Origin: Vermamoeba vermiformis
Taxonomy: Eukaryota
DNA: 64,000 bases
Direction: 5' to 3'
Assembly (NCBI GenBank): GCA_045837725.1
Contig: JBEWZL010000282.1
Coordinates: forward strand, 248,001-312,000
Shown: positions 1,542-44,799 of the stretch, piece after piece
Layout: the number at the start of each line of letters is the position of its first letter
Position numbering within the stretch: position 1 is the stretch's first letter
Position numbers and translations under genes: made by a program
The notes under the pieces: generated by a model
Told to the model about the DNA's origin: nothing
Database searches by the model: none
Seen by the model: only the letters and a program-made list of their open reading frames with translations

Positions 1542-2771
1542 ATGTTAGCGAGAATTCAATACAAAACTCTACTTAACACTACTAATGTGCTAGTTACTAG
1601 ACTGGTCAAGCGAAGATACAGCATAGAAGACAGTATTTTTGAGGATGCGAAGAGATCAGATCATTCAATTTCATCCAGGACGGCTTCCTGGCTCGAAAAA
1701 GGCTTGAAATTCGAGAATATAGGACAGGGAGTTAGTAAATTATCGTTTGCACGAGATGAAGCGAAGAATGCGCTCTCTACGCCTGTTGTGAGTGCTTTAC
1801 TCGAGGCATTAAGACTGCTAGCAGAAAAAAATGAAGAAAAATCAGAAGACGCGCCCAAAGTTGTCATATTATCGGGAGAAGGTATTTAATTTCCTCGTAA
1901 AATGTTGCAAATTGAAAAAATATTTTCAGATCTGAGCATTTACGAATATTTTGATATTTAGGTACTTATTTCTCAGCTGGAGGTGATATTTCAGAGTTAC
2001 AAAGAGCGAGGAACGAGGACGAGTTGCGGCTAATATTCAACACATTTACGCAGCTTGTAGAAACTTTTCGAAGGCTGCCTCTCGTGGTAATATCGCAAGT
2101 ACGTGTCCTGATCATAATATAGTAGTAATATCGATCCATTGGTATTGATGGCGCTTATTTCAGGTGAATGGCAGGTGCGAAGGAGAAGCATTGCAATTAG
2201 TGGGTGCGTCGGATCTGGCTATCGCTTCTAAAAGAGCAACTTTCAGTTTGCCTGGTATATAATGATAGGCGTTGTCGGCTATTATAAGCTAATATACATT
2301 ATAGGGAGCAGCTATGGCTTGATTAATCACATGGCTGCCGTCAATGTACTACGTAGCAGCGTGCACAAGAAGAAAGTTTTTGAAATGTTATTGACTGGCG
2401 AGACCATTACAGCTAGAGAGGCATTAGAATACGGCTTATTAAATACGGTACGTTAATATTGGTTTCTTGGAATGTTGACTAATGGTGCGATAGGTCGTGG
2501 ATGAGGATCGACTCGAGGACGAGACACTGCAGATAGCAAAAAAGATCGCGCGACTTGATTATGCAGTACTTGGTCTAGCCAAGAAGGTTCGTCGTAATGT
2601 TCTTGATTATGCCCGTTATACTTCTCACAATTGTCGGAATTATAGACTTTCCACGCACAATCGCAGATGCCTTTTGAAATTGCATTGCCGATCGCAGAAG
2701 AAGCGATGCTCGAGAATATTAAAATGGAGAACGTACAGCAACAGATTAGTGCAAAGTTGAGGAAGAAATAA
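1542..2771 (+). CDS. Enoyl-CoA hydratase/crotonase family protein (ECHDC3-like), probable mitochondrial presequence
   Basis: KNALS, VVILSGEG-YFSAGGDI, PLVVISQVNG, ASDLAIASKRATFSLPG, FEMLLTGETITAREALEYGLLN; basic N-terminus; spliced exons end at TAA 2769-2771. Confidence 0.85.
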
Positions 2772-3770
2772 ACCGGTCAAGAAGTGGGACAAGAGATCTT
2801 TTGGTGCGGATGAGCTTGCTGACCTAAATCGGAGTGAGCGATCGAAGATTGCACGAAGATCTAGTGCCCTCGAGCTTAGTCTAAGCGATAATGACGACTA
2901 TGAAGATATTGTGTGTCTCGATTGAATTCCGCCGCTCCTTATTAGCCTTTGCAATCTCGTAAGTGTGTTACCGTATGCATTAGGCAAGTGCGAAATTATT
3001 GCAAAGGTTTCGTTAGATCTACTTGTACTAACTTAGATAAATTCGATTGAAAAGATGTGAGTGCATTAACTAACCAGGCTTTCTTTTGTGCGATCTCGAA
3101 GATCTCTGCATGAAAACTAAGTCGATTTGTGACTTTAGTGAACAACGCTTGCGCAATAAAAGCATTCACGTACCAGGCTTATGGAAATGATAGGCAGAAT
3201 TAATATGGGCTGCTAAATATAGCTATTAAATTTGTTTGAATTGGTTTTCGGTTGCAAGTTGGTTACACTACCGGAGGAATGATGCACAACCTTACGGATT
3301 CTCGATTAGATCCATTTCTCGACTAGTGAACAGCGGATGTGGTGTGACATGTCTGAATTTAATTCCGCATCTGAGCTCAGAATTCATTATTTATCGATAA
3401 AAGCATTTCTATGCCTCCCTTTAGCGATGAAACTGAAGTTCTAGCGACGGCGAATCGTAATCTTGAATAGAATCTTTGCCATCTTCGTAATATGCGCAAA
3501 TATATTATTGCCGAAAAGAAATTGTGATGGATCGCAAACAACCATGAACGAAATGAGGCGCAACAAGCTGATCCTATATCATTAAGAAATGCGTACGTGC
3601 AACACCCATTCTTCCACGTGATTTGTCTCAAAAAGGAAACGTAATGAAGTTTTTGGCTCATTTTTGTATTTTCATCAAACTCAGCAACAGAGCCCTTCAA
3701 AAATCTTAAGTTTTGTCGGGTCATAATAGCTATTATTTGTTGTTAACTATATTAAAGCAGTTCATGGGCT

Positions 3771-6700
3771 ATGGAAAGTTATCCCCCCAGTAAACGACCT
3801 CGTCTCGATCGTGGTGATTTTATAGAAAATCTGGAAGCAAACCAAACTCATACCTATATCGACATTACACCACACGACAATCTTCAATATGGGACGTCAA
3901 TATATCCACCTTTTGATGTACACGAACAACAGTTCATTAACAGTGGAACATCCAACCATGATCTGCTCGTTCCACCGAAACCCAACACCAGCAATGCCCA
4001 CTTTTGACCTAATGCCCATGCCTGACTATTTGCCTGCCGATGAAGAATATTCTTTCGCTCACAATAATTTATATTCGACAAACTTGAATCAGCTGATGCC
4101 AAATTCCCATCCAGTCACTGGAGAGCATTTTTATCAACCAAACCATTCGACACAAAATATACCCGCATATGGATACTCCAATTCATCGCTTCCGGCTCAC
4201 ATCCCCAACGCACCTTCTCCGAATGCAGCCCAAATATATGTAGCTCAGCAGCACGTTGCTACAACCACGACTATAGTAGACAGCGCGCAAATACACATTA
4301 ATCACCCGCCTCCGACACCTACAGTCCCTGCGCCCGTCCCCTCGCCTATTCAATCACAACAACACCTCAATGAATCGCCTTCACCCAGCAATAGCGGTTC
4401 TCCTGGTGGCTCTCGTAGTGTCTCATCACCCGAGCATAACATGCAGATGCAAAAGAAGAACGAAGTCGCATCCAGTGAAGAGGATTTGGGTTTCAAACTT
4501 TTTTGCGAGAATCCACTCGTGCTCGTCAATTACCAAGCTCCTTATATTCGTAAACAAATGAATATAACTCTTACAAAGCTATTTTTGTGCGAGAGTGATT
4601 TTGACGAGCACGAAGGGACCATTACTCTATGGAAATTTAGAGACAATACGGTCATGCTCGGTAATCCGGCTTTGTTTCCTCAAGTTCCGCCTGTAGTGCT
4701 CGAGCCATCGATGGTAATTCAATCAGACATTGTATCTCGCGTATTCAGTGACGACAAATGCCTGTATACCGTCAGTGGCGGAGATTCGCTTTGGTTGAAC
4801 TGGTGGAATCTGACCACGTTCCAAGAGTCCAGACTCAATATAACGCCGAAGCTAGGACCATTGGTAAGTTTAAATTCTACATTTCCATTTATTTTTAAAT
4901 TGAGGGCTATTCAATCACAACTGATTAACCTTTCGTTAAACTAACTGGATCCAAGTTAAATGATGGCTGAACTGCCAAGATTTTCTGGATCCGGTTTGCA
5001 TTTATTACGATCGTAAAATTCTTATATTACGAAATCTTAACGAGTTTTGACTAGCGGCAGGTTTTTCTCGCTCGAAAAATATGATTCGAAATTTCCAAAT
5101 ATATTTTTTTTTGATTTTTCGTCAGATATTTTGAAATCTCATTTCGGCGACCTCCGCCAACGAGATATTATATTAAATGGTCCTCTCAATATTTTTCTTC
5201 AATTATTAATATTAATTCTTTTTCTAACGCCGTCATTTTTTCAGAATATTGAGTTGCCCGTTACCGTGACTGCAGGCCATGTCGACAAAGACTTTATTTA
5301 TATTGCTACAATGCGCGGACACATTCTCATCTTAGACAAGGTCCATAAGAAGATAAATAAGGTCCTCAAGCTCAAATCATTAGCATTCGCTCATTCGTTG
5401 ACCAGCGGAGAGAAGTACTTATATGGTAAGTATTACTAAATATGGAAGAGAGGACACGTCACCGCAAGAGAATATCTTTCCTAATATAACCAATTTACTA
5501 GCGCGTGACCATTAATTTTCGACTTTATGGATCGAGTGCCACTCGTTAAATTTCTGCAATCACTATTCGTACTAATATGATCATTTCCTATTATAGCTGC
5601 TTATACGGATGCGTCGGTGCGGCTGTGGTACAAAACACGCAATTGGAGGAAAAAGAAACATATCTGCGTTGGTAAGTGTCAGGCGGCGTAATATTGCGTA
5701 ACTTTCATGACACTTTTTATTGATAATAATTATCATATAGTATATACTATGACTATATATAACTTCGGAAACAAAATATGAATGGAAATTTCTCAATTAG
5801 ATAATACGAATGAATTTAATGGTTTTTGAACTGACAGTTGTATTAATGACACTTTCCAAAAATAGATAAAACCAATAAGACGCCAGTGCGCGGCATTGAA
5901 CTCGATGACGCCAAGTCATATTTTGCGTTCTCGCGGCTGCTTCAAGTCAGCAACAAAATCAACAAACAGTTGCTCGAATACGGCACCGTTCGATTCGATC
6001 AAGACGTGCAGTGCTTTACTTCTGATAGGGACTTTTTATATATCGCCTTCATTGGTACGTATCACCTGGCTTAATTAACGCGACAGCATAATGCCTAAAA
6101 AGGAATTGGAACTGGACTCCAGAAAATTAAAATTGATTTTCTGTAATTCGTTCAATGAACGATACTAACAAGGTTTAATTATGATTAGGACGCATTGAGA
6201 TTAGAGCTAAACAAAGCTTGGAGTTGGTCAAGTCACTTCAGTTACAAAATCAAAATGCAATCCGTTGGATCAAGACCGACGAGAAATATCTCTACGTGGA
6301 CAGCCATCCATTGATTGTCTATAACAAAGAGACACTAGTACCTATTACTATCATGGGCGAGCCTAGTTTGGACAAGTAAGCATAATTAAATTTAAATTTT
6401 ATTTGCGTGGTCGACACTTTAACCTAATTTGGCAAGCGTCAGTTGTTAGACAGCAATTAACTAACCATTTATTTTCTAGGAACTCGGGAGTGCGATACAC
6501 GTTGTGCAATCACAAAGTGATTATTGGTGGCTGCAAAAATGGAAACGTGATGATTTGGCGACGTGACGCGAATGTTTTGATCGCGGATCTTCCGCCAATC
6601 AGATCTTCGGGGGTATGTGTTCAATAAGACTCTTATATAGTGCATTGTATTGACACTAACGACTACTATAGGAGACTGATACCTCGCAACAAGCAGTGAC

Positions 6701-34534: not shown

Positions 34535-36268
34535 TTATATGGAGGCATTAACGAGCCGAGTCAATTTCAGCGATAGTTCACCGAGCGTAAAATTGTGCGG
34601 GAAGTACAATGAGACATCTCGGAGTGTCGTCAACGCTGTTAAGTGAACACACGCCGCGGAATTATCTTGGTGGTGGACTCGCAAAGCAGTTAAGTTGCTG
34701 AGTGCGGTCAGAAGAAGTAAATCGTCCTCGGTTTCGACCAGACCGGTTCCAATGGTAAGACTTTCAAGCGCAGTGAGCGTTGGCAATACAGCCCAATAGT
34801 TCTTAATGCCTGGCATAACTGCTTGCAGCAGAATCAATGGCAGCTTTGCTAGTACTGTGCAATCGAAAGTAGTCTGGTAACTTGGACGAGCAACGTTGTC
34901 GAAAACTAACGAAGTCAACTTCGTTAAATATTGAATATTCTCCCAAGTTTCTTGCTCCAGTTGCGAGTGACTAAAATCTAATGATTGAAGATTTGTAAGA
35001 CGCGTGATAGCTTGTGGTTCTATCTCGCATCAGTCAGAAATAAGCTCGTCAAGTTATGAAGATTTGACAGTGAGGAGATCCGTTCGTGCCTTGGCATTTT
35101 CAATCTCAATTCCAGTAAATTCGTCAAGCTGTTGAGTGGCTCAATAGCCGTTGTCTTGCACAGATCCGCATCGAGTTGTGTCAAATGAACCAAGTGTGAG
35201 ACGGCAGACAATTCAAACGGCACGCCTTCGCGCAAATTCAATGATAATTCTTGCAATGTCGTCGGGAATGACGCGACATCAGCGCCTTCAGAAGTGATGT
35301 AGAGCGTGTTCAATTGTGACAGGTTTGACAGTGACACGTTGCCACAATTGGGCAAGAATAGGACTAATCTTTCCATCTTTGAGAGCGTGGCCAAGCTGTC
35401 CAGCAGCACAGACACGTCAGTTTCCATGTTTGTTTGGACAAACAACTCCGTCAGATGATGGCTGAACTCGAGTCCTGTCAATTTTCCCGTGTCGCAGGTC
35501 AAATTCTCCAACCATGTAATGTGTCGAAGATCCACTGATCTGTCCTCGTCGATTCTGAGTGCTAGTTGCTTGAGTCTTGTTAATCTTGACAGCTCTTTGA
35601 GGGACTGACCGGTGGTGAGTATGTTCAGTTCTGTGACTGAGACTGGAAGCTGTCGTAAGGCCGTCTCTGTGGTGTCGAACGCTTCATAGTGCGGGCAGTG
35701 AGTTGCAACAAAATGAACGAAGTCGTCGGAGTCTTCTGTGTCGAAAGAATTGTAGCAGCGTTTCATTCGTGGAAAATGTTGCAAAAGTTTGGAAGGCACA
35801 ACACGTCTGTAACCCAAGTACAATGACTCCAAGTTGGTTAACGTTGATAATTTGAGGTATTCTTCGGGTTCTAGAGACCTTTGCTGGCTTGTTGAATGAT
35901 CACTCAAGGCAAATACTCTGAGCTGCGTTAAACGAGGGATGTGCTCTAAAACATCCCTGTCTGTAATGTTGACGAGGTTTTGAAGTGTTAACTCAATTGG
36001 ATATTGGTATTTTGATAACCGAGCAACGATTTGAGGCAGCAGAGTCGAGGATGCGAAGTTGAAGACAAAAGTCGAGTAGTTGATCCAGCGAAACCAGTCT
36101 GTGCTCGCCAATCGTGCAATGCGTGCATTTTTGTCGTCCAAAAATGACAAGATTAATTTGATTATTTCGTGTGGTAAGTGATCCTGTCAAAGAAAAATTA
36201 GAAAGAAATTGGAAAATCACCAAAAATATAAATCGCACGATTCTTTCTATATATTTATAACTCACCAT
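34535..36268 (-). CDS. F-box/leucine-rich-repeat protein (frameshift near 35030)
   Basis: ATG at 36268 followed directly by a GTGAGT...ACAG intron giving MDHLPHEIIKLILSFL...RLASTDW (F-box), then many LxxLxxLxxL repeats. Confidence 0.8.
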
Positions 36269-36538
36269 ATTTCAGGCATAGGCAGAACAATTATTAAAAC
36301 CTTTGCCTGTAAAATGGACGACGGTTTTGGAACTGCTAAAGTATTGAATAGTTGGTAGTAACGTTTGACAAGCCTTGTCTTGATCACAAGTACTTATTTC
36401 GGTAGATCTCTTTTGTTGCGCATAAAAATGGGGAACATTAGCCAATTATAAATTCAATTTACCCGAAGTTGTTTTTCATTAAACAAAAAAATCGTGACTT
36501 AAATGCCAGTTAGTGTCGCAAGATTTGATTAAAACACG

Positions 36539-38613
36539 ATGGAGCACAACACAGGTCCTGTTAACGCTATTTTAATTGGTTCGCGAGCCTGGAATAAAGA
36601 TTTGGATAGTGAGAAGTCCTCGAGCAAGTCGGATTGGGATCTAATTGTCACTGCTGAGCGGTTATCTGATTTACTTCGTATGTATTTATTAATGATAATG
36701 AAATTAGTTTAAGATGCTATTAATAACGGCAGTAAATACAAATGTACAGCCTATATTTTAATAATTTATTAATTATTTGATCTAATGGACCTTTAAATAA
36801 AAGACGGTCGAATGTTTTACCACTACCGATCACAATTAGAACAAGGCAAATTATCGGTTGTTTCGCAAACTGGAGCAAAAGTGGAATTTGAGATCATGGA
36901 AAAATTTGAAAGCGCGAAGGTCCTCAAAGCACTGTCTAAAGAACAAAAAAAGACGATCAAACTTCAAAACTTGTCTGTTCAAATTTATACCGGTCAAGCG
37001 ACTGTTGCGCGCGTCTGGGCAGCTGAAGCTAATATTCCAACAAAAGAAGCCCTTTTAGTGCTCAAAGCAAGTCATATCTATTTCCCGATCAATTGGCGCA
37101 AGAACTGTAAGTTTATAACCGATCGGATATCCGCGGCAGCAACTGATCCAGAACAGATCTATCGCGGCATAACTTCGGCAAGATCCACTTATTAACGGTA
37201 GTATTGCGCAGTTCTTCAGCTCGTATCAATGATGTCCTCGTTCTCAAAGAGCTTCAGCAAAGTGATCAAAGAAGATCCTCACTCATCATTGCTCAAAGAA
37301 CTGTTTCAAACACGAGCACGTGAGACACTTCATCGAGTCAAGTCACAAGTGCATCTCTCAGTTCAGCGAATTCATGCACCAACCATCAACCAGCTTCGAG
37401 ACTTGTGCAAAGGATGTTACGATCGTGAAGAGTTCATTTTTGCAGACATTTTGCAACTGAAAGAAGATCCGAGTGACACGTTCTATTTACCAACCACTGG
37501 ACTCAAACTGAGCAAGTCTGCGTGGTCGAAATATGGTGTAGACGTGACAGCTCACAAGTCTGGCGAAGTTGCTGGCAAGGCGCTGATAGTGCACGAACAA
37601 CTCGTCCTGTTGGCATTGCACTACTATCTGCCTCAACATCGAAGCTTTGGCTTCTTGTCGTAAGTCTCGGTCCATCACTAGGCGAACGGAATAACACTCC
37701 CAGTCATTTGTAACGATTTAATTTATAGAAAACTGAAAAAAGAAGATCAAATCAACGAGCTGTTCATGCTGTGTGTCGAGACATTTGTGACGCAGCAACT
37801 TGTGCCTGTCACTCGTACCACAGATCACCATCCTGAATACAAATCATGTATGTACATGCTGGTTGATGCGCATAACAATATCGACTAAACTGACGACTAT
37901 TCAGGCTTGCCTGTTGATGGTGCTGGTATTGCCCCAGACGTTTTCATCATTGATTTGTACGGTATGTCTCGTATTATTCCCAAACACAACACGTTACTTA
38001 TGTAGCACAATTAGAGACACTGCCATTAGCAACGAATGCAGAGCTGTCAAAAACAACATTCGCCAATCCAATCGTGAACTGGCTGCTCGACAATCTCAGC
38101 ACTGAATACGACACCATTCGACAGTCATTTGCAGCATTTGTGCAGTCTTGCATTGAAACACACAAAGATTTGTTCACTTACAAACAGTTCACCATTCATC
38201 TTCCCTTCGAGATCATCGACATGATCGAGTCATCCGTGCCAAATGATCACGTGCTTTTATCGAAACTTTGTCGAGTGTGCAAGTCATGGAACAAGTACTT
38301 CAGTGAAGACGCCAAGTGGGAGGCACTGTGCGACAGATTTGACGAACAGACTAAACAACTAGCGAGGGAAAATATCTCGTCGCATCAACGCTGCACTTGG
38401 AAGTTGGTGTTCAAGAATGCGCTCGAGTTAATGCAAACCACGCACAATATGCAGTACTGCCGACACTGTCGCAAGTTGCACCCGAGAGTGTTCAGCTATG
38501 ACGAAAGAAATAGCAAAACTGACGAAGCTTATTGGTCTTTGTGCGTCTGTCCTCTGTGTGATGCGGGTAGTTGGCGAGAATGTCCGTACTACCAGGACTT
38601 CTTTTACGCGTAA
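36539..38613 (+). CDS. Nucleotidyltransferase-like / F-box / Zn-finger protein, tandem copy 1
   Basis: ILIGSRAW...SDWDLIV (GS...DxD); LLVLKASHIYFPINWRKN; F-box LPFEIIDMI...LCRVCKSW...WEALC; CxxC...CxCxxC...C tail. Confidence 0.8.
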
Positions 38614-38840
38614 CACGTTGTAAATACAAAAAAACGTAAACATTAATTAAAAAGCAGCAGTGCAATTATTATCCTTCGTGAATCAATTACCTGGAAATTC
38701 GAGAATGGAGGCGGTTTTATGCTATAGTCACTATGTCCACAAATGCGTCGTTGTTGGTCATTGGTGATGCATTTTATGCATAAAAAAAATGTGACTTAAA
38801 CGGGACATTGTGTCTCAAGATTATTTTGTTTGTAAATACG

Positions 38841-40885
38841 ATGGAGCACAACACAAGTCCCATCGATGCTATTTTGATTGGTTCGCGAGCATGGAATAAA
38901 GATTTGGACTGCGAGAAGTCTTCGAGCAAGACGGATTGGGATCTAATTGTCACTGCTGAGCGGTTATCTGATTTAATACGCATGTAATTTAAATTATATT
39001 GTGAATTCGTTTAGTTTAAAACGGCGGTTATATTACTGAACGCTTACAATTTTGATTTTTCTAAAATTGCGTTGCTAATTATTAATTACCGTAAATATTA
39101 ACAGATGGCCGAACGTTTTACCACTACACACCACAATTGGAGCAAGGCAAATTATCGATTGTTTCGCAAACTGGAGAGAAAGTAGAATTCGAGCTTATGG
39201 AAAAATTTGAAAGCGCGAAGGTCCTCAAAGCACTGGTCAACAAAAGGAAAACAGTCACGATCCAAAATTTGTCTTTCCGAATGTTTTCTCATCAACCATA
39301 CACTCCGCGTATTTGGGCGGTTGAAGCGAACATTCCAACAAAAGAAGCACTGTTGGTCCTGAAAGCCAGTCATATCTACTTCCCGATCAATTGGCGCAAG
39401 AACTGTACGTTAAGCGATGCCGATCCAGACCAGATCTATCGCGGAATAACTCTTCGGCGAGATCCACTTATTAACTGTCATATTGTGCAGTTCTCCAGCT
39501 CGTGTCAATGATGTCCTCGTTCTCAAAGAGCTTCAGCAAAGTGATCAAAGAAGATCCTCACTCATCATTGCTCAAAGAACTGTTTCAAACACGAGCACGT
39601 GAGACACTTCATCGAGTCAAGTCACAAGTGCATCTCTCAGTTCAGCGAATTCATGCACCAACCATCGATCAGTTACGTGATTCATGCAAAGGTCGTTATG
39701 ATGGTGAAAGTTTCATTTTTGCAGACATTTTGCAACTGAAAGAAGATCCGAGTGACACTTTCTATTTGCCGACCACTGGACTCAAACTGAGCAAATCTGC
39801 GTGGTCGAAATATGGTGTAGACGTGACAGCTCACAAGTCTGGTGAAGTTGCTGGCAAGGCACTGATCTTGTACGAACAACTCGTCTTGTTGGCATTGCAC
39901 TACTACGTGCCTCAACATCGAAGCTTTGGCTTCTTGTCGTAAGTCCCCATGAGAATCATCATGGTGCATGAGAGTCAGCTAAGCACCTTTTGTAGGAAGT
40001 TCAAGAAAGAAGATCAAATCAACGAGCTGTTCATGCTGTGTGTCGAGACATTTGTGACACAACAACTTGTGCCTGTCACTCGTACCGCAGACCACCATTC
40101 TGAATACAAATCATGTATGCACATACAAACTCGTTGATACGCATAACAATATTGTCTAACGAATTACAACAGATTCTACCCCTGGGGCTGATATTGCCGC
40201 AGATGTGTACAGCATTGACTTATACGGTATGCCTCGTATTATTCCCAAACACACCTACGTCACTAACACAATGATATTAGAGACCTTGCCATTAGCATCG
40301 AACGCAGAGCTAGCAAAAACAACATTCGCCAATCCAATCGTGAACTGGCTGCTCGACAATCTCAGCACTGAATACGACACCATTCGACTGTCATTTGCAG
40401 CATTTGTGCAGTCTTGCATTGAAACACACAAAGATGTGTTCACTTACAAACAGTTCACCATTCATCTTCCCTTCGAGATCATCGATATGATCGCGTTGTC
40501 CGTGCCAAATGATCACGTGCTTTTGTCCAAACTTTGTCGAGTGTGCAAGTCTTGGAACAAGTACTTCAGTGAAGACGCCAAGTGGAAGCCTCTGTGCGAT
40601 AAATTTGATGACAAAGCAATGCAGATGGCGAGGAAACGTCTTGCTGAGAAGAGTGCACGCAGTCGCATTGATTGTAAAGCCTTGTTCGGTGAGGTGTACC
40701 AGTCTCTGCCAACCATTCACGCGATGCAGTACTGTCAGCATTGTCACGGCATGCACGCTAGAGTGAGCAACTATGACGAGAGAAATGTGAATGTTGAGGA
40801 AGGGCACGAGACCCGCTGCCTTTGTCCTGAATGCGATGTTAGTTGGCAGGATTGTAGGTACTACACGGACTTCTTTTTCGAGTAG
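38841..40885 (+). CDS. Nucleotidyltransferase-like / F-box / Zn-finger protein, tandem copy 2
   Basis: Same exon layout and motifs as copy 1 (ILIGSRAW...TDWDLIV; LPFEIIDMI; CQHC...CLCPEC...C). Confidence 0.8.
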
Positions 40886-41179
40886 ATAAATATTAAACAA
40901 TTTGATTTGGATGTGTGCGCGATTTAGCTAAAGATATGGCAAAACACTAATGTCCGTATTACCGCAGTTCGTTTATGCGTACGTGAACTAAAATTTGTGT
41001 CGTTTAAATCGAAAGATAAACATATTATTTTATCTTATCATCAGGTGGCGATCACACTTGATTTCAATCATTATAAGAATATTATCAGAATGCGATCTGT
41101 TCATTCCGCATAAACCTGTCAGTCCTTTCCTCATAAATTGCGATGCCGTTCACTTCGGGCATTGTAATGCCATATTACA

Positions 41180-43169
41180 ATGGAACGCAACGCAGGGCCT
41201 GTAAACACTATATTGATTGGCTCGCGAGCTTGGAACAAAGATTTCATTGCAAGCGACAATGACACGGATTGGGATCTGATCGTCAATTTGAAGCAATTAG
41301 AGGATATAATAGGTTCGTAAAATTAGCAAAAATATCTTTTGATTGGTAGACGGGTATTTGGAGGTACAAGTTCGTGATCCTTCAATTCAAAATTTAACGG
41401 CCAATTAAAATTTGTAAATTCAATTGACCAATTCGAACTCTTCCATACTAACTTCTATCATTTATAGCGGAAAAAACATTTTATCACTATCGACCGCAGT
41501 TGGAAAACGGCAAACTGTCCGTCGTACATCAGAGTGGTGCGAGGTTAGAATTTGAAATTATGGAGAAGTTAGCAAGCGCTCAGATTCTCAAATCATTATC
41601 GAAAGAGCGAAAGGAAACGATCACGCTACAGAACCAAACTAAGCAGACTTTTCACTACGCAATCGTGCCAGTGACGTGGACTCTACAAACCAACATTCCA
41701 TCAAAAGAAGTCCTTTTAGTGCTCAAAGCAAGCCATATCTACTTCCCGATCAATTGGCGCAAGAATTGTAAGTTAAACGATGACCGATCCGACCAGATCC
41801 GCTTATTAACTGTCATATTATGCAGTCCTTCAGCTCGTGTCAATGATGTCCTCGTTCTCAAAGAGCTTCAGCAAAGTGATCAAAGAAGATCCTCACTCAT
41901 CATTGCTCAAAGAACTGTTTCAAACACGAGCACGCGAGACACTTCATCGAGTCAAGTCACAAGTGTACCTCTCAGTTCAACGAATTCATGCACCAACCAT
42001 CGATCAACTACGTGACTCGTGCAAAGGATGTTACGATCGTGAAGGGTTCATTTTTGCAGACATTTTGCAACTGAAAGAAGATCCGAGTGACACGTTCTAT
42101 TTACCGACCACTGGACTCAAACTGAGCAAGTCTGCGTGGTCACAGTACGGCACAGACAAGTGTCATTGCGATGGTGATGAGAATGAAAGCAAGGCATCCA
42201 TACTCTATGAACAGCTCGTCCTGTTGGCATTGCACTACTATCTGCCTCAACATCGCAACTTTGGCTTCTTGTCGTAAGTTCTACTAACCAAATGCACTGC
42301 AGTCAATTGTGACCGTTATCTATTCACAGAAAACTGAAAAAAGAAGATCAAATCAACGAGCTGTTCATGCTGTGTGTCGAGACATTTGTGACACAACAAC
42401 TTGTGCCCGTCACTCGTATCACAGATCATCATCCCGATTTCAAATCATGTACGATTATAACATTAGATTGCCAATCCGACGCAGTAGCTTACTCCAAATT
42501 TTAGGCTTTCCCACCACAGGCGCAGACATCATGGCAGAAGTCCATGGCTCGGACATTTTTGAGCCTGCACCATTGGCATCGAATGCAGAGCTAACAAAAA
42601 CAACATTCGCCAATCCAATCGTCAACTGGCTGCTCGACAATCTCAGCACTGAATACGAAGGACTGCGCACTTCATTCACTCAGTTCATGGTGAAAGCACG
42701 CAAAGCACGAGAAGAGTTGTTCGTGCATACACTCAATGCTATTCCTAATCTCCCCTTCGAGGTAATTGAAATGATCAAATCATCAGCGCCGAATGATCAC
42801 GTGCTTTTGTCGAAACTTTGTCGAGTGTGCAAGTCATGGAACAAGTACTTCAGTGAAGACACCAAGTGGGAGGCACTGTGCGACAGATTTGACCGTGAGA
42901 CACGAGCATTGGCTGAGAAGCACCTCAAAGCAGCGCATCGTCGTGTTGACGCCAAGACATTGTTCCGTGAGCTGTACGAGATGATGTCCACAGCACACAC
43001 GATGCACTATTGCAATCACTGTCGTGACGTGCATCAACGGCGCATGAGTTACGACGCTGTCGCCAGACGACTCGAATACGAGGGTCGTTGTGCTTGTCCT
43101 CAGTGCAAAACTGGCAGCGGGGATATCTGTCCTTATTTCAACGACTTTTTGTTCAGCAACGAACATTGA
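41180..43169 (+). CDS. Nucleotidyltransferase-like / F-box / Zn-finger protein, tandem copy 3
   Basis: ILIGSRAW...TDWDLIV; LPFEVIEMI...LCRVCKSW; CNHC...CACPQC...C; lacks one intron present in copies 1 and 2. Confidence 0.8.
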
Positions 43170-43262: not shown

Positions 43263-44799
43263 TTATTTCTTTTTCAAGCTGTCAAAATATTCCGCCATAG
43301 ACTGTGCCAGTATTGCCTGTTCAATGTCCTGTTCGTATTGTGCGAGTTCAGACTCGTGTTTGAGCTGTTCAATCAAGCTCAGTTCAATCGCTTCATCGTC
43401 CATCACGCGGTCACTCTCTTGCTGCACGGTCTTCAGCACTTGTTCTTCGAGCACCTCGCGCTCTGATTCGTTGATTGCTGCCTCGACTTGCATCTTGTCG
43501 GCAAGCTAAAGGAGTATATTAATATGGCTATATTATATGGTGATTAATAGACGTACGCCTGGCTTCAGATCTGGCATGCCAAGACCGACTCCGAATGCAG
43601 GATTGTTTGGATCTCGAACGGAGTTGTAATGGTTGCCTTGATGATAGCTTAACTTGATCGATGGATTATCTGTCGCGTAGTTTTCTTGGAAAATATTCAG
43701 CGGCTCTTGGATTTATGGATCAGAAACAAGATCTCAAAGATAATGATCAGAATGGACTTACGATCATCTTCAGCATATATTTCAAAGGGTCTATTATACA
43801 GTTCAATCATCGCTTGGATCTCTAAATGATTGCCAAATGTTCCTAAGATTCTTTTGCGTCGGATGTACTCGTCAAAATCTTCCGTTACAAACTGCGAGTA
43901 ATAATCCCGATCTCTTTCCTATTAGTATTATATTAACATATATATCCAATACTAGCGTTCTTGTAACACTACCATAAAGTCCAAGCAATTCTTTCGTACT
44001 ACATCGTGCATGTCTGCATCGCCGTAGACTTGATCCGCTGCAAAATATCGAATGGTTAGTATAAAGCTATTTGATGTGATATATATGTGCCATATCAATC
44101 CTGATATTTGCTGAATTCAAGTTGTGCTTCGAAATCCAGTTCGCGTCTTACCGACAGATCTAAAAAGACAGTTTCCATCACCAGCTACTGCATATACTTC
44201 TAGTCCTGTTCGTTCTTTTAACAATCGCGCAAAAGCTTCTTCATCTGCAGTCTATATAAGAGTAAAGATTTGTCAGCAAATTTGAAATTGAATTGGATTT
44301 CGAACTGATTAATAATTTTAATTCTTCTAAATATTTTATTTTATATTTTAATAATATTTACCAATACTGGCCGTAGCTGGTTTGATAGGGATTGGCTGAA
44401 AGAATTTTTTGTTTCGGATCTTGGTTCTGCCGGGTTATGTGCTTGATTGCGCGATATTATAATACACCTCTTATTATTTACAATATTTACATTATTATTA
44501 TTTCGTGCTATTGACGGAGTTGGACTCTCTGAAGAAATTTTCTGTTTTTTTCTCGGATGTGGATCCGAATCTTTCTCCCACTCTGTGCCACTATCTGACG
44601 TTGTTACTACGCTATCATCTTCATTATTGTTATTATTTACAGTATTTTTGTTGTTGACATTTGCTGCATCCGGTGGATTAGTCTTTTCAATTACTTCAGT
44701 CGAATTCTCTTGCTTATTCTTGTCCTCGTTATTATTGCCATTATTATTACTCGTATTATTCGTGCTGGTAGTTGGTGTTTTATTTACAATGCGCACCAT
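43263..44799 (-). CDS. OTUD5: OTU-domain deubiquitinase (OTUD5/DUBA-like)
   Basis: [64 protein letters not shown]-terminal UIM-like EQAILAQS. Confidence 0.9.

Follow-up and report, generated by a model that had tools for sequence, protein, structure and literature searches.

What would an F-box protein of a eukaryote do with a nucleotidyltransferase (NTase) of viral type at its N-terminus? The question is raised by three tandem genes, g1, g2 and g3, which occupy positions 36539-43169 on the plus strand of a 64,000-nucleotide stretch of Vermamoeba vermiformis DNA (contig JBEWZL010000282.1, positions 248,001 to 312,000; the whole stretch is referred to below as the window). We find that g1-g3, F-box proteins with an NTase head of viral type, are a genuine fusion that is both intact and rare. 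We give a probability of roughly 60% to the reading that they belong to a small, lineage-restricted eukaryotic F-box family whose head serves a recognition or modification step coupled to the Skp1-cullin-F-box (SCF) ubiquitin ligases.

Gene models and the nucleotidyltransferase-like head

Spliced by coordinates, the three paralogues gave uninterrupted frames of 557, 554 and 554 residues. The first, g1 (36539..38613), consists of six exons (36539-36677, 36804-37106, 37212-37659, 37729-37847, 37905-37961 and 38006-38613) and encodes 557 residues comprising the NTase-like head, the F-box and a zinc (Zn) tail. Six exons also make up g2 (38841..40885; exons 38841-38979, 39105-39404, 39491-39938, 39996-40114, 40173-40226 and 40281-40885; 554 residues), and five make up g3 (41180..43169; exons 41180-41312, 41468-41767, 41826-42273, 42330-42448 and 42505-43169; 554 residues). 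The 14 introns are 44-155 nt long; 13 have GT..AG ends and one has GC..AG ends, namely intron 1 of g2 (38980-39104), whose donor reads GCATGT where the g1 counterpart reads GTATGT. The motifs IGSRAW...DWDLI, LKASHIYFPINWRKN, EQLVLLALHYY, LPFE.I.MI...CRVCKSWNKYF and C.HC...H...C.CP.C...C are each present in all three genes, and this layout is far beyond chance. An initial annotation of the locus, made from the sequence alone, had described three intron-containing paralogues with these motifs, and every element was found in place with complete frames in 3/3 genes. A tblastn search with P0001, a database relative described below, returned g1-g3 and no fourth copy in the window.

The exon joins agree with independent sequences. 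A search with exon 3 alone found P0001, a database protein of 558 residues. Its residues agree with those of g1-g3 at every exon join, and it is 67-68% identical to each window gene (68% to g1). The contigs that carry P0001 and its near-identical cluster mates are 1842-1933 bases long, and because this is too short for a gene with introns like those of g1-g3, the contigs are probably assembled transcripts. Furthermore, run X8 gave contigs that lack 36678-36803 and 37107-37211 and connect 37659 to the start of exon 4, all with GT..AG ends, corresponding to introns 1-3 of g1. Beyond an X8 contig end at 38979 the sequence is that of the start of g2 exon 2, in support of the GC donor of g2 intron 1, and zero X8 contigs fell on unique parts of g3. 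At least g1 and g2 are transcribed. A reading of the locus as pseudogenes or a transposon was ruled out by the intact frames, by ratios of nonsynonymous to synonymous substitution (dN/dS) below 0.5 and by the spliced contigs.

Residues ~10-330 of g1-g3 are, by sequence profile, a divergent homologue of Pfam DUF7277+DUF7275 (PHROG 2141), to our knowledge an uncharacterised enzyme family of phages and giant viruses. This homology is settled because it comes from a profile-profile comparison: an hhalign alignment of the eukaryotic family (11 sequences, without g1-g3) against 48 phage-type sequences gave a probability of 98.6% (E = 5.6e-16), and addition of g1-g3 gave 99.6% (E = 8.7e-25) over 269 columns, with residues 11-326 of g1 placed on residues 2-277 of the phage-type protein P0028. 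Consistent with this, the ESM Atlas clusters nearest to the head were DUF7275/DUF7277 (score 0.93), and among seven BFVD matches with E <= 1e-3 the sole two named ones were DUF7275 proteins of Satyrvirus and Sylvanvirus. The phage/giant-virus NTase-like family to which the initial annotation had likened the N-terminal part is Pfam DUF7277+DUF7275.

Family scans of the window genes were run exon by exon, with P0001 as proxy for the whole spliced protein; the curated Pfam cut-off is 27 bits for DUF7277 and for DUF7275. Exon 1 of g1 matched DUF7277 at E = 5e-5 (24.4 bits, under the cut-off) and Pfam Polbeta at E = 0.022, exons 2 and 3 gave no match to either family, and whole P0001 matched DUF7277 at E = 0.012 (16.8 bits, under the cut-off). 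PHROG 2141 was matched collinearly by exon 1 (E = 9.4e-4, profile positions 2-36) and by exon 2 of g3 (E = 0.12, profile positions 62-128). The relative P0014 lies above the DUF7277 cut-off, at 35.5 vs 27 bits. Searches of PDB by sequence gave no match for P0001 and chance-level matches only for P0028.

On the viral side, P0026 and P0028 match DUF7275 strongly (E = 3e-47 and 6.7e-50). Homologues of P0028 were found in 721 of the 50,697 phage records searched, T4-like and phAPEC8-like phages among them; 60 of these records, sampled across the ranking, comprised four annotated as (putative) nucleotidyltransferase and one as putative antibiotic resistance protein, the rest being hypothetical, unnamed or unannotated. 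A scan of viral contigs with the phage-type pair returned only two loci. An IMG/VR contig (L001), which we read as giant-virus-like from its size and gene content, carries at 2557-4701 on its plus strand an open reading frame (ORF) of 714 residues with an intact DUF7277/DUF7275 domain including the HD motif, and has a twin on a 439-kb contig; after the domain the ORF runs on for about 300 residues as an acidic, Asn/Tyr-rich extension without an F-box. The family thus seems to be present in giant viruses as well as phages.

Two further features of the viral proteins were observed. In Escherichia phage ukendt (L003), small acidic ORFs at 1910-2128 and 2138-2410 on the plus strand lie directly upstream of the DUF7277/DUF7275 gene (2501-3442), and their products end in ...VWHSSSC and ...VWISSSSMC. 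P0026 (440 residues), of the phage-type DUF7277/DUF7275 kind, has an intact HD motif and is extended at the N-terminus; at its C-terminus lies an acidic stretch in which an aromatic residue is followed by five consecutive Ser, and this could be a fused client-like tail. Judged from these sequences, the Ser tails in ukendt and P0026 hint that the viral enzyme may act on protein tails.

We compared predicted structures with solved ones. The AlphaFold model of P0028 had a mean predicted local distance difference test (pLDDT) score of 93.6, and in a Foldseek comparison with PDB all five of its matches with E <= 1e-3 were MenT1 (best E = 2.5e-5), followed by MenT3/TglT, TM1012, ANT(2'') and CCA-adding enzymes. 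VIA, which is independent of Foldseek, likewise ranked MenT1 highest (8an4, Z = 12.1, 159 residues aligned, root-mean-square deviation (rmsd) 3.9), followed by TglT (10.5), MenT4 (9.6) and ANT(2'') (9.2), and its top eight rows (Z 12.1-8.4) were all listed as nucleotidyltransferases or NTase-like proteins. The model of P0001 (pLDDT 75.3) is less confident than that of P0028; its top match was MenT1 in both programs (Foldseek E = 0.019, probability 1.00; VIA Z = 7.2, 163 residues aligned, rmsd 4.2). Thus, as far as the models go, the DUF7277+DUF7275 family is predicted to fold like the MenT/AbiEii nucleotidyltransferases, and the NTase fold that had been assigned to the N-terminal part on the strength of its motifs was recovered with both models.

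The head retains the NTase core of the phage family. NTase motif I, IGS...DWD (G14, S15, D32 and D34 of g1), lies on the plus strand at 36575..36646 in g1, 38877-38948 in g2 and 41216-41281 in g3 and aligns to S6, D21 and D23 of the phage family. The strand VEFEI (36881..36895, 39182-39196 and 41545-41559, plus strand) aligns to VELEV of P0028 and to the phage consensus EFEI; it holds the candidate third carboxylate (E74/E76 of g1) and would, from this alignment, supply the third metal ligand. LKASHIYFPINWRKN (K134, S136, H137, W144 and K146 of g1), at 37061..37105, 39359-39403 and 41722-41766 on the plus strand, aligns to phage K110, W120 and K122. The 48 phage-type sequences have S6, D23, K110, K122, F170, F171, H184, D185, H188, P197, E230, E231, E238, R239 and F279 invariant. 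The core residues S6, D23, K110 and K122 and the near-invariant G5, D21, S112 and H113 are all present in g1-g3, which in the hhalign alignment also retain the ExE strand, W144 and the first Glu of EE. A relic of the viral HD motif lies on the plus strand at 37418..37435 (YDREEF) in g1, 39697-39714 (YDGESF) in g2 and 42032-42049 (YDREGF) in g3, where hhalign places YDHDSI(H) of P0028; the initial annotation had already taken this motif for degenerate, and the alignment of YDHDSIH to YDREEFI agrees with it.

The passages on MenT3 in PMC7450476 report that the protein needs D80, which lies in its Pol-beta motif, together with K189 and D211, both toxin-specific; D80 and K189 are required for toxicity, and S78 is the phosphorylated active-site serine. 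Judged by spacing, K134 and Q150 of g1 would correspond to MenT3 K189 and D211, and phage D126 may by its position be the counterpart of the toxin-specific Asp that MenT3 needs.

The F-box and the cysteine/histidine tail

The F-box (residues 421-464 of g1) lies on the plus strand at 38200..38331 in g1, 40466-40597 in g2 and 42750-42881 in g3 and was assessed with Pfam and with a PDB profile search. Against the Pfam F-box-like cut-off of 24.3 bits, g1, g2 and g3 scored 18.4-19.4 bits (E = 0.001, 0.0018 and 0.00091), all under it, and the relative P0011 scored 27.9 bits, above it. We also built a profile of ten C-terminal modules (A6) and searched it against PDB sequences at E <= 10. Among the 15 sequences matched, 10 were F-box chains aligned at F-box positions (residues ~10-80), with a best E of 5.9e-5; they comprised five mouse FBXW-family chains, FBXW11, two beta-TrCP and two SKP2, and the similarity runs on into the linker. 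Furthermore, an LPxE...CKxW pattern is conserved across the eukaryotic family. In structural comparison of the P0001 model, where pLDDT over the segment is 61-81, VIA matched FBH1-SCF (Z = 5.1), Cdc4-Skp1 (Z = 5.0) and SKP1-FBXO3 (Z = 4.1). Thus, the C-terminal segment is, by its profile, a true F-box and a member of the F-box superfamily. The comparison with solved FBXW, beta-TrCP and SKP2 chains bears out the F-box of the initial annotation, whereas the argument made there from its C-terminal position is weak: the F-box-linker-Zn module follows the usual order of F-box and then receptor, with the FBXW similarity extending into the linker. The unusual feature is the large N-terminal head and not the placement of the F-box. 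On structure, the initial annotation was largely right.

Two observations concern the same part of the protein. The ESM Atlas clusters nearest to the C-terminal part were Nucleocytoviricota F-box clusters (score 0.90-0.91), an unconfirmed lead only. P0012, a repeat protein of 1506 residues, matches residues 346-387 of P0001 in seven stretches (E = 2.9e-9, 40% identity), and the match covers the conserved 'ASNAEL.KTT.ANP' region that immediately precedes the F-box.

The proteins end in a tail with the motif C-x2-C-x3-H...C-x-C-P-x-C...C, located on the plus strand at 38458..38583 in g1, 40733-40855 in g2 and 43011-43130 in g3. In P0001 numbering, C508, C511, H515, C534, C536, C539 and C547 are conserved in at least 90% of the family, and (GSW) precedes the last Cys. 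The tail matched nothing in Pfam or PDB sequences, and we read it as zinc ribbon-like because of its two CxxC knuckles. It is the most divergent part of g1-g3, with 26-53% identity per 30-column block. A narrow alignment of the tail matched 94 stretches of viral contigs, none of which was confirmed, a weak negative for Zn tails in viruses.

Rarity, evolution and genomic setting of the triplet

The family is rare. A HMMER search with P0001 over 1,835,955,588 representatives returned 28 proteins at E <= 1e-3, which fell into exon-sized fragments, nine full-length proteins (516-578 residues) and the three phage-type proteins P0018, P0026 and P0028. The full-length relatives of the same layout (P0010, P0011, P0014, P0016, P0019, P0022, P0023, P0025 and P0029) are 18-25% identical to P0001. 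Word-indexed searches yielded few relatives: one in the longer mode and, from the family profile, eight that were all either close copies or fragments of exons. Proteins of about 200 residues with an F-box and tail (P0002, P0006, P0009 and P0020) were considered as separate proteins and rejected; we read them as last-exon fragments from genomic contigs. P0002 closely matches the last exon of g3, starting 10 codons in, and P0006, P0009 and P0020 align to the same region. The ESM Atlas holds a 558-residue 'DUF7275 domain-containing protein' cluster of 53 members, and the eukaryotic family may thus have been catalogued automatically already. A full-text literature search, with candidates judged by title and abstract, found no description of a fusion of an F-box with a nucleotidyltransferase/DUF1814 or with DUF7275/DUF7277, and to that extent agrees with the initial annotation, to which no described NTase-F-box fusion was known.

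We built a FastTree phylogeny from 65 head domains over 286 columns, leaving out the exon-sized P0002-P0009 and also P0074, P0077 and P0083-P0085. The 14 eukaryotic sequences formed one clade (support 0.99) on a long branch; the sister of this clade was weakly supported (0.715), and the root of the tree is arbitrary. Thus, the tree of these sequences supports a single origin of the eukaryotic heads and does not support a particular donor.

The paralogues are 80% (g1-g2), 69% (g1-g3) and 67% (g2-g3) identical. Substitution rates were estimated by a crude Nei-Gojobori count, in which dS is saturated in the variable segments. dS was 0.12-0.35 in exon 3, exon 4, the TTFANPIVNWLLDNL segment and the F-box and was about 1 or saturated elsewhere for pairs with g3, and the flanking introns of g1-g3 are 30-50% identical. 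We read this patchy low dS beside divergent introns as patchy gene conversion on an older duplication. Patches at 37212-37500, 37729-37790, 38037-38097 and 38274-38334, with their g2 and g3 equivalents, show 95-100% DNA identity among all three genes and adjoin introns and segments of 30-60% identity. dN/dS was 0.00-0.47 in all segments where dS could be estimated (0.14-0.35 in the first 50 codons, 0.45 in the tail), and g1-g3 are therefore all under purifying selection; this count, with dS saturated in the variable segments, gave no sign of positive selection.

In three RNA sequencing runs, X21-X23, 192 reads aligned to the genes, 181 of them partially, at 95-99% identity and continuing into unlike sequence. 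These reads stem from a different strain or from other paralogues and are hardly informative on g1-g3. Where reads end at 37733, 42334, 38038 and 40082, the onward sequence resembles the end of exon 3 or the exon-4 continuation of another family member; from these off-matching read ends it follows that further paralogues or alleles outside the window are probably expressed and spliced at the same junction.

Besides g1-g3, the reading frames of the window include a protein kinase, ankyrin, PHAX and OTU-like frames, with short GT-AG introns. Head to head with g1 and about 350 bp away lies a single-exon F-box and leucine-rich-repeat (LRR) gene (35020-36186, minus strand), whose F-box (Pfam E = 3.4e-4, 20.8 bits, just above cut-off) is not close to those of g1-g3. 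Convergent with g3 is a multi-exon gene for an OTU-like cysteine protease, a deubiquitinase (~43263-44251, minus strand); one exon matched Pfam OTU at E = 0.0031, under the cut-off, and the motifs DGNCLFRS and HQGNHYNSV are visible. Ubiquitin-system genes thus flank the triplet on both sides, which may be coincidence. Finally, the decamer GTGACTTAAA follows an A-run at 36494-36503 and 38791-38800, in each case ~40-50 bp upstream of the start codon (of g1 and g2, respectively), and might be a common promoter element that was copied in the duplication.

Readings of the fusion and comparison with known systems

Gene structure, homology, fold class, the identity of the F-box and rarity are established by the data above; for the SCF-coupled reading preferred here we infer Skp1 binding, ligand binding or catalysis, a coupling to ubiquitylation and the biological role along the following lines. 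In their N-terminal 330-400 residues, g1-g3 carry a diverged version of the DUF7277+DUF7275 enzyme, which belongs structurally with the two-lobed nucleotidyltransferases of the MenT/AbiEii type; the F-box, a helical linker and the small Cys/His module, probably zinc-ribbon-like, come after it. The F-box would dock the protein on Skp1/cullin, and the head, with its putative nucleotide/metal site (GS, DxD, ExE, K...W.K), would bind a ligand, be it a nucleotide, an RNA end or a protein, and possibly nucleotidylate it. The variable Zn tail occupies the usual place of the receptor domain in F-box proteins, and the whole would link ubiquitylation to an act of recognition or modification. Tandem duplication gave rise to the genes, purifying selection keeps them intact, and gene conversion has probably homogenised them in part.

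Several findings weigh against this reading. Neither the window proteins nor P0001 reach the Pfam cut-offs for DUF7277, DUF7275 or the F-box, structural F-box matches at Z ~5 are weak by VIA's own caution, and the tail is modelled with low confidence (pLDDT 55-61) in P0001. The X21-X23 reads are confined to the conserved patches, and g1-g3 are at best weakly expressed in these three runs; nothing in the analysis links g1-g3 to defence. In the head, 10 of the 15 phage-type invariants have no counterpart in the window genes: F170, F171, H184, D185, H188, E231, E238 and R239 have given way to other residues, and for P197 and F279 the position is unaligned or unclear. Relative to P0028, YDHDSIH has become YDREEFI, EE has become EQ and ER has become HY, and the near-invariant phage D126 is Q150 in g1. 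Because the invariants of the HD lobe are gone and D126 is Gln, catalysis may be lost or changed. Moreover, six of the nine full-length relatives as deposited lack the GS and/or DxD strands.

The loss of HD..H, FF, the second Glu, ER and Asp126 would be expected if the head were a pseudoenzyme, that is, a non-catalytic NTase-like domain serving as the ligand- or substrate-binding part (for nucleotide, RNA or protein) of an SCF adaptor. We consider this possible, though doubtful. It draws further support from the 11-sequence alignment of the eukaryotic family, where invariance beyond the start Met is limited to K139, W149 and K151 (P0001 numbering), and from several deposited relatives that begin after the GS and DxD strands. 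However, GS, DxD and ExE are intact in all three window genes and in P0001, P0011, P0014 and P0018, and purifying selection acts on the first 50 codons. The short relatives, P0010, P0016, P0019, P0022, P0023, P0025 and P0029, are truncated N-terminally to varying degree and keep the ExE strand, suggesting missed first exons; their short N-termini may thus reflect either lost catalysis or missed first exons and truncated gene models. At the other extreme, the head could be an active MenT-like enzyme, for example adding nucleotides to tRNA 3' ends or modifying a protein, with the F-box mainly for its own turnover, as is the case for unstable F-box proteins, so that it would build up only when the ubiquitin system is disturbed, like an abortive-infection guard. 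The nearest solved folds are indeed the toxins MenT1, MenT3 and MenT4, the catalytic core is kept, and the genes have expanded in tandem with divergence greatest in the tails; yet Pfam AbiEii/DUF1814 was not among the matches for the window exons, P0001 and 10 relatives (E <= 0.1-1), the toxin-type Asp is absent, and dN/dS in the tail is not that of positive selection; such an SCF-controlled effector is improbable.

It is also unlikely that a eukaryote captured a phage or giant-virus MenT-like NTase and wired it to SCF as an immune or conflict module, in which the head would sense or nucleotidylate a target, the rapidly diverging zinc tails of the tandem copies would set target specificity and the F-box would either direct ubiquitin onto the target or cause rapid turnover of a toxic enzyme as long as no infection upsets proteolysis. 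That the targets of such a module would be viral or translational, for instance the 3' end of an RNA or a protein tail rich in Ser, as in the putative clients of the phage enzyme, is a similarly long shot. A last alternative concerns the F-box, which could be a helical packing element that does not bind Skp1, leaving stand-alone NTase-like enzymes with a zinc tail. The Pfam scores under the cut-off in every window gene, the pLDDT of the segment and the low structural Z would fit, but the module profile found mostly F-box chains among its PDB matches, P0011 exceeds the Pfam cut-off and LPxE...CKxW is conserved across the family; we think there is little to be said for a packing element.

A eukaryotic relative hard-wired to an F-box offers an independent handle on the partners of DUF7277/DUF7275, and a head that retains the NTase core but has lost the HD lobe offers one on the indispensable part of the enzyme. 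If Skp1 is bound, g1-g3 would represent a new type of receptor for SCF ligases and one more instance in which eukaryotes have put viral or prokaryotic conflict machinery to new use; if it is not, they still are a clean, rare domain fusion for annotation.

Among known systems, the head is closest to DUF7277 (PF23942) and DUF7275 (PF23940), or PHROG 2141, proteins of about 300 residues in large phages that are longer in giant viruses. The two are collinear over ~270-300 residues, have GS, DxD, ExE, LKxSH...WxK, R..E and ALE..CT in common and share the same predicted NTase fold. In contrast to g1-g3, the viral proteins stand alone or carry other extensions, as in the 714-residue giant-virus-like ORF and P0082, which have no F-box, and they keep the invariant FF, HD..H, EE and ER. 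Two small acidic W-x-SSS-(x)-C proteins precede the enzyme gene in phage ukendt, and nothing like that is found in the window. Because it lacks the signature of the helical lobe and stays under the Pfam cut-offs, the head is, by its sequence, a divergent offshoot and not a typical member of DUF7277/DUF7275.

The MenT/AbiEii (DUF1814) toxins MenT1, MenT3/TglT and MenT4 are the best structural matches to P0028 and P0001 and resemble them in the bilobed NTase with its GS...DxD site and in a helical lobe that bears a conserved Lys. They differ from g1-g3 in that identity in the structural alignments is about 10% and the position of the second toxin-specific Asp is Gln; furthermore, g1-g3 are fused to an F-box, reside in a eukaryotic host and have no antitoxin gene, their neighbours being the F-box/LRR and OTU-like genes. 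With the cellular F-box proteins FBXW, beta-TrCP and SKP2, g1-g3 share the succession of F-box, linker helix and further module. Unlike them, g1-g3 have a Cys/His tail of about 45 residues instead of a WD40 or LRR receptor and carry a viral-type NTase head of 400 residues N-terminal of the F-box. An enzyme domain in an F-box protein is itself not without parallel: the FBH1 helicase, matched here through PDB 9xzj, and the KDM2 demethylases are both F-box proteins that carry one.

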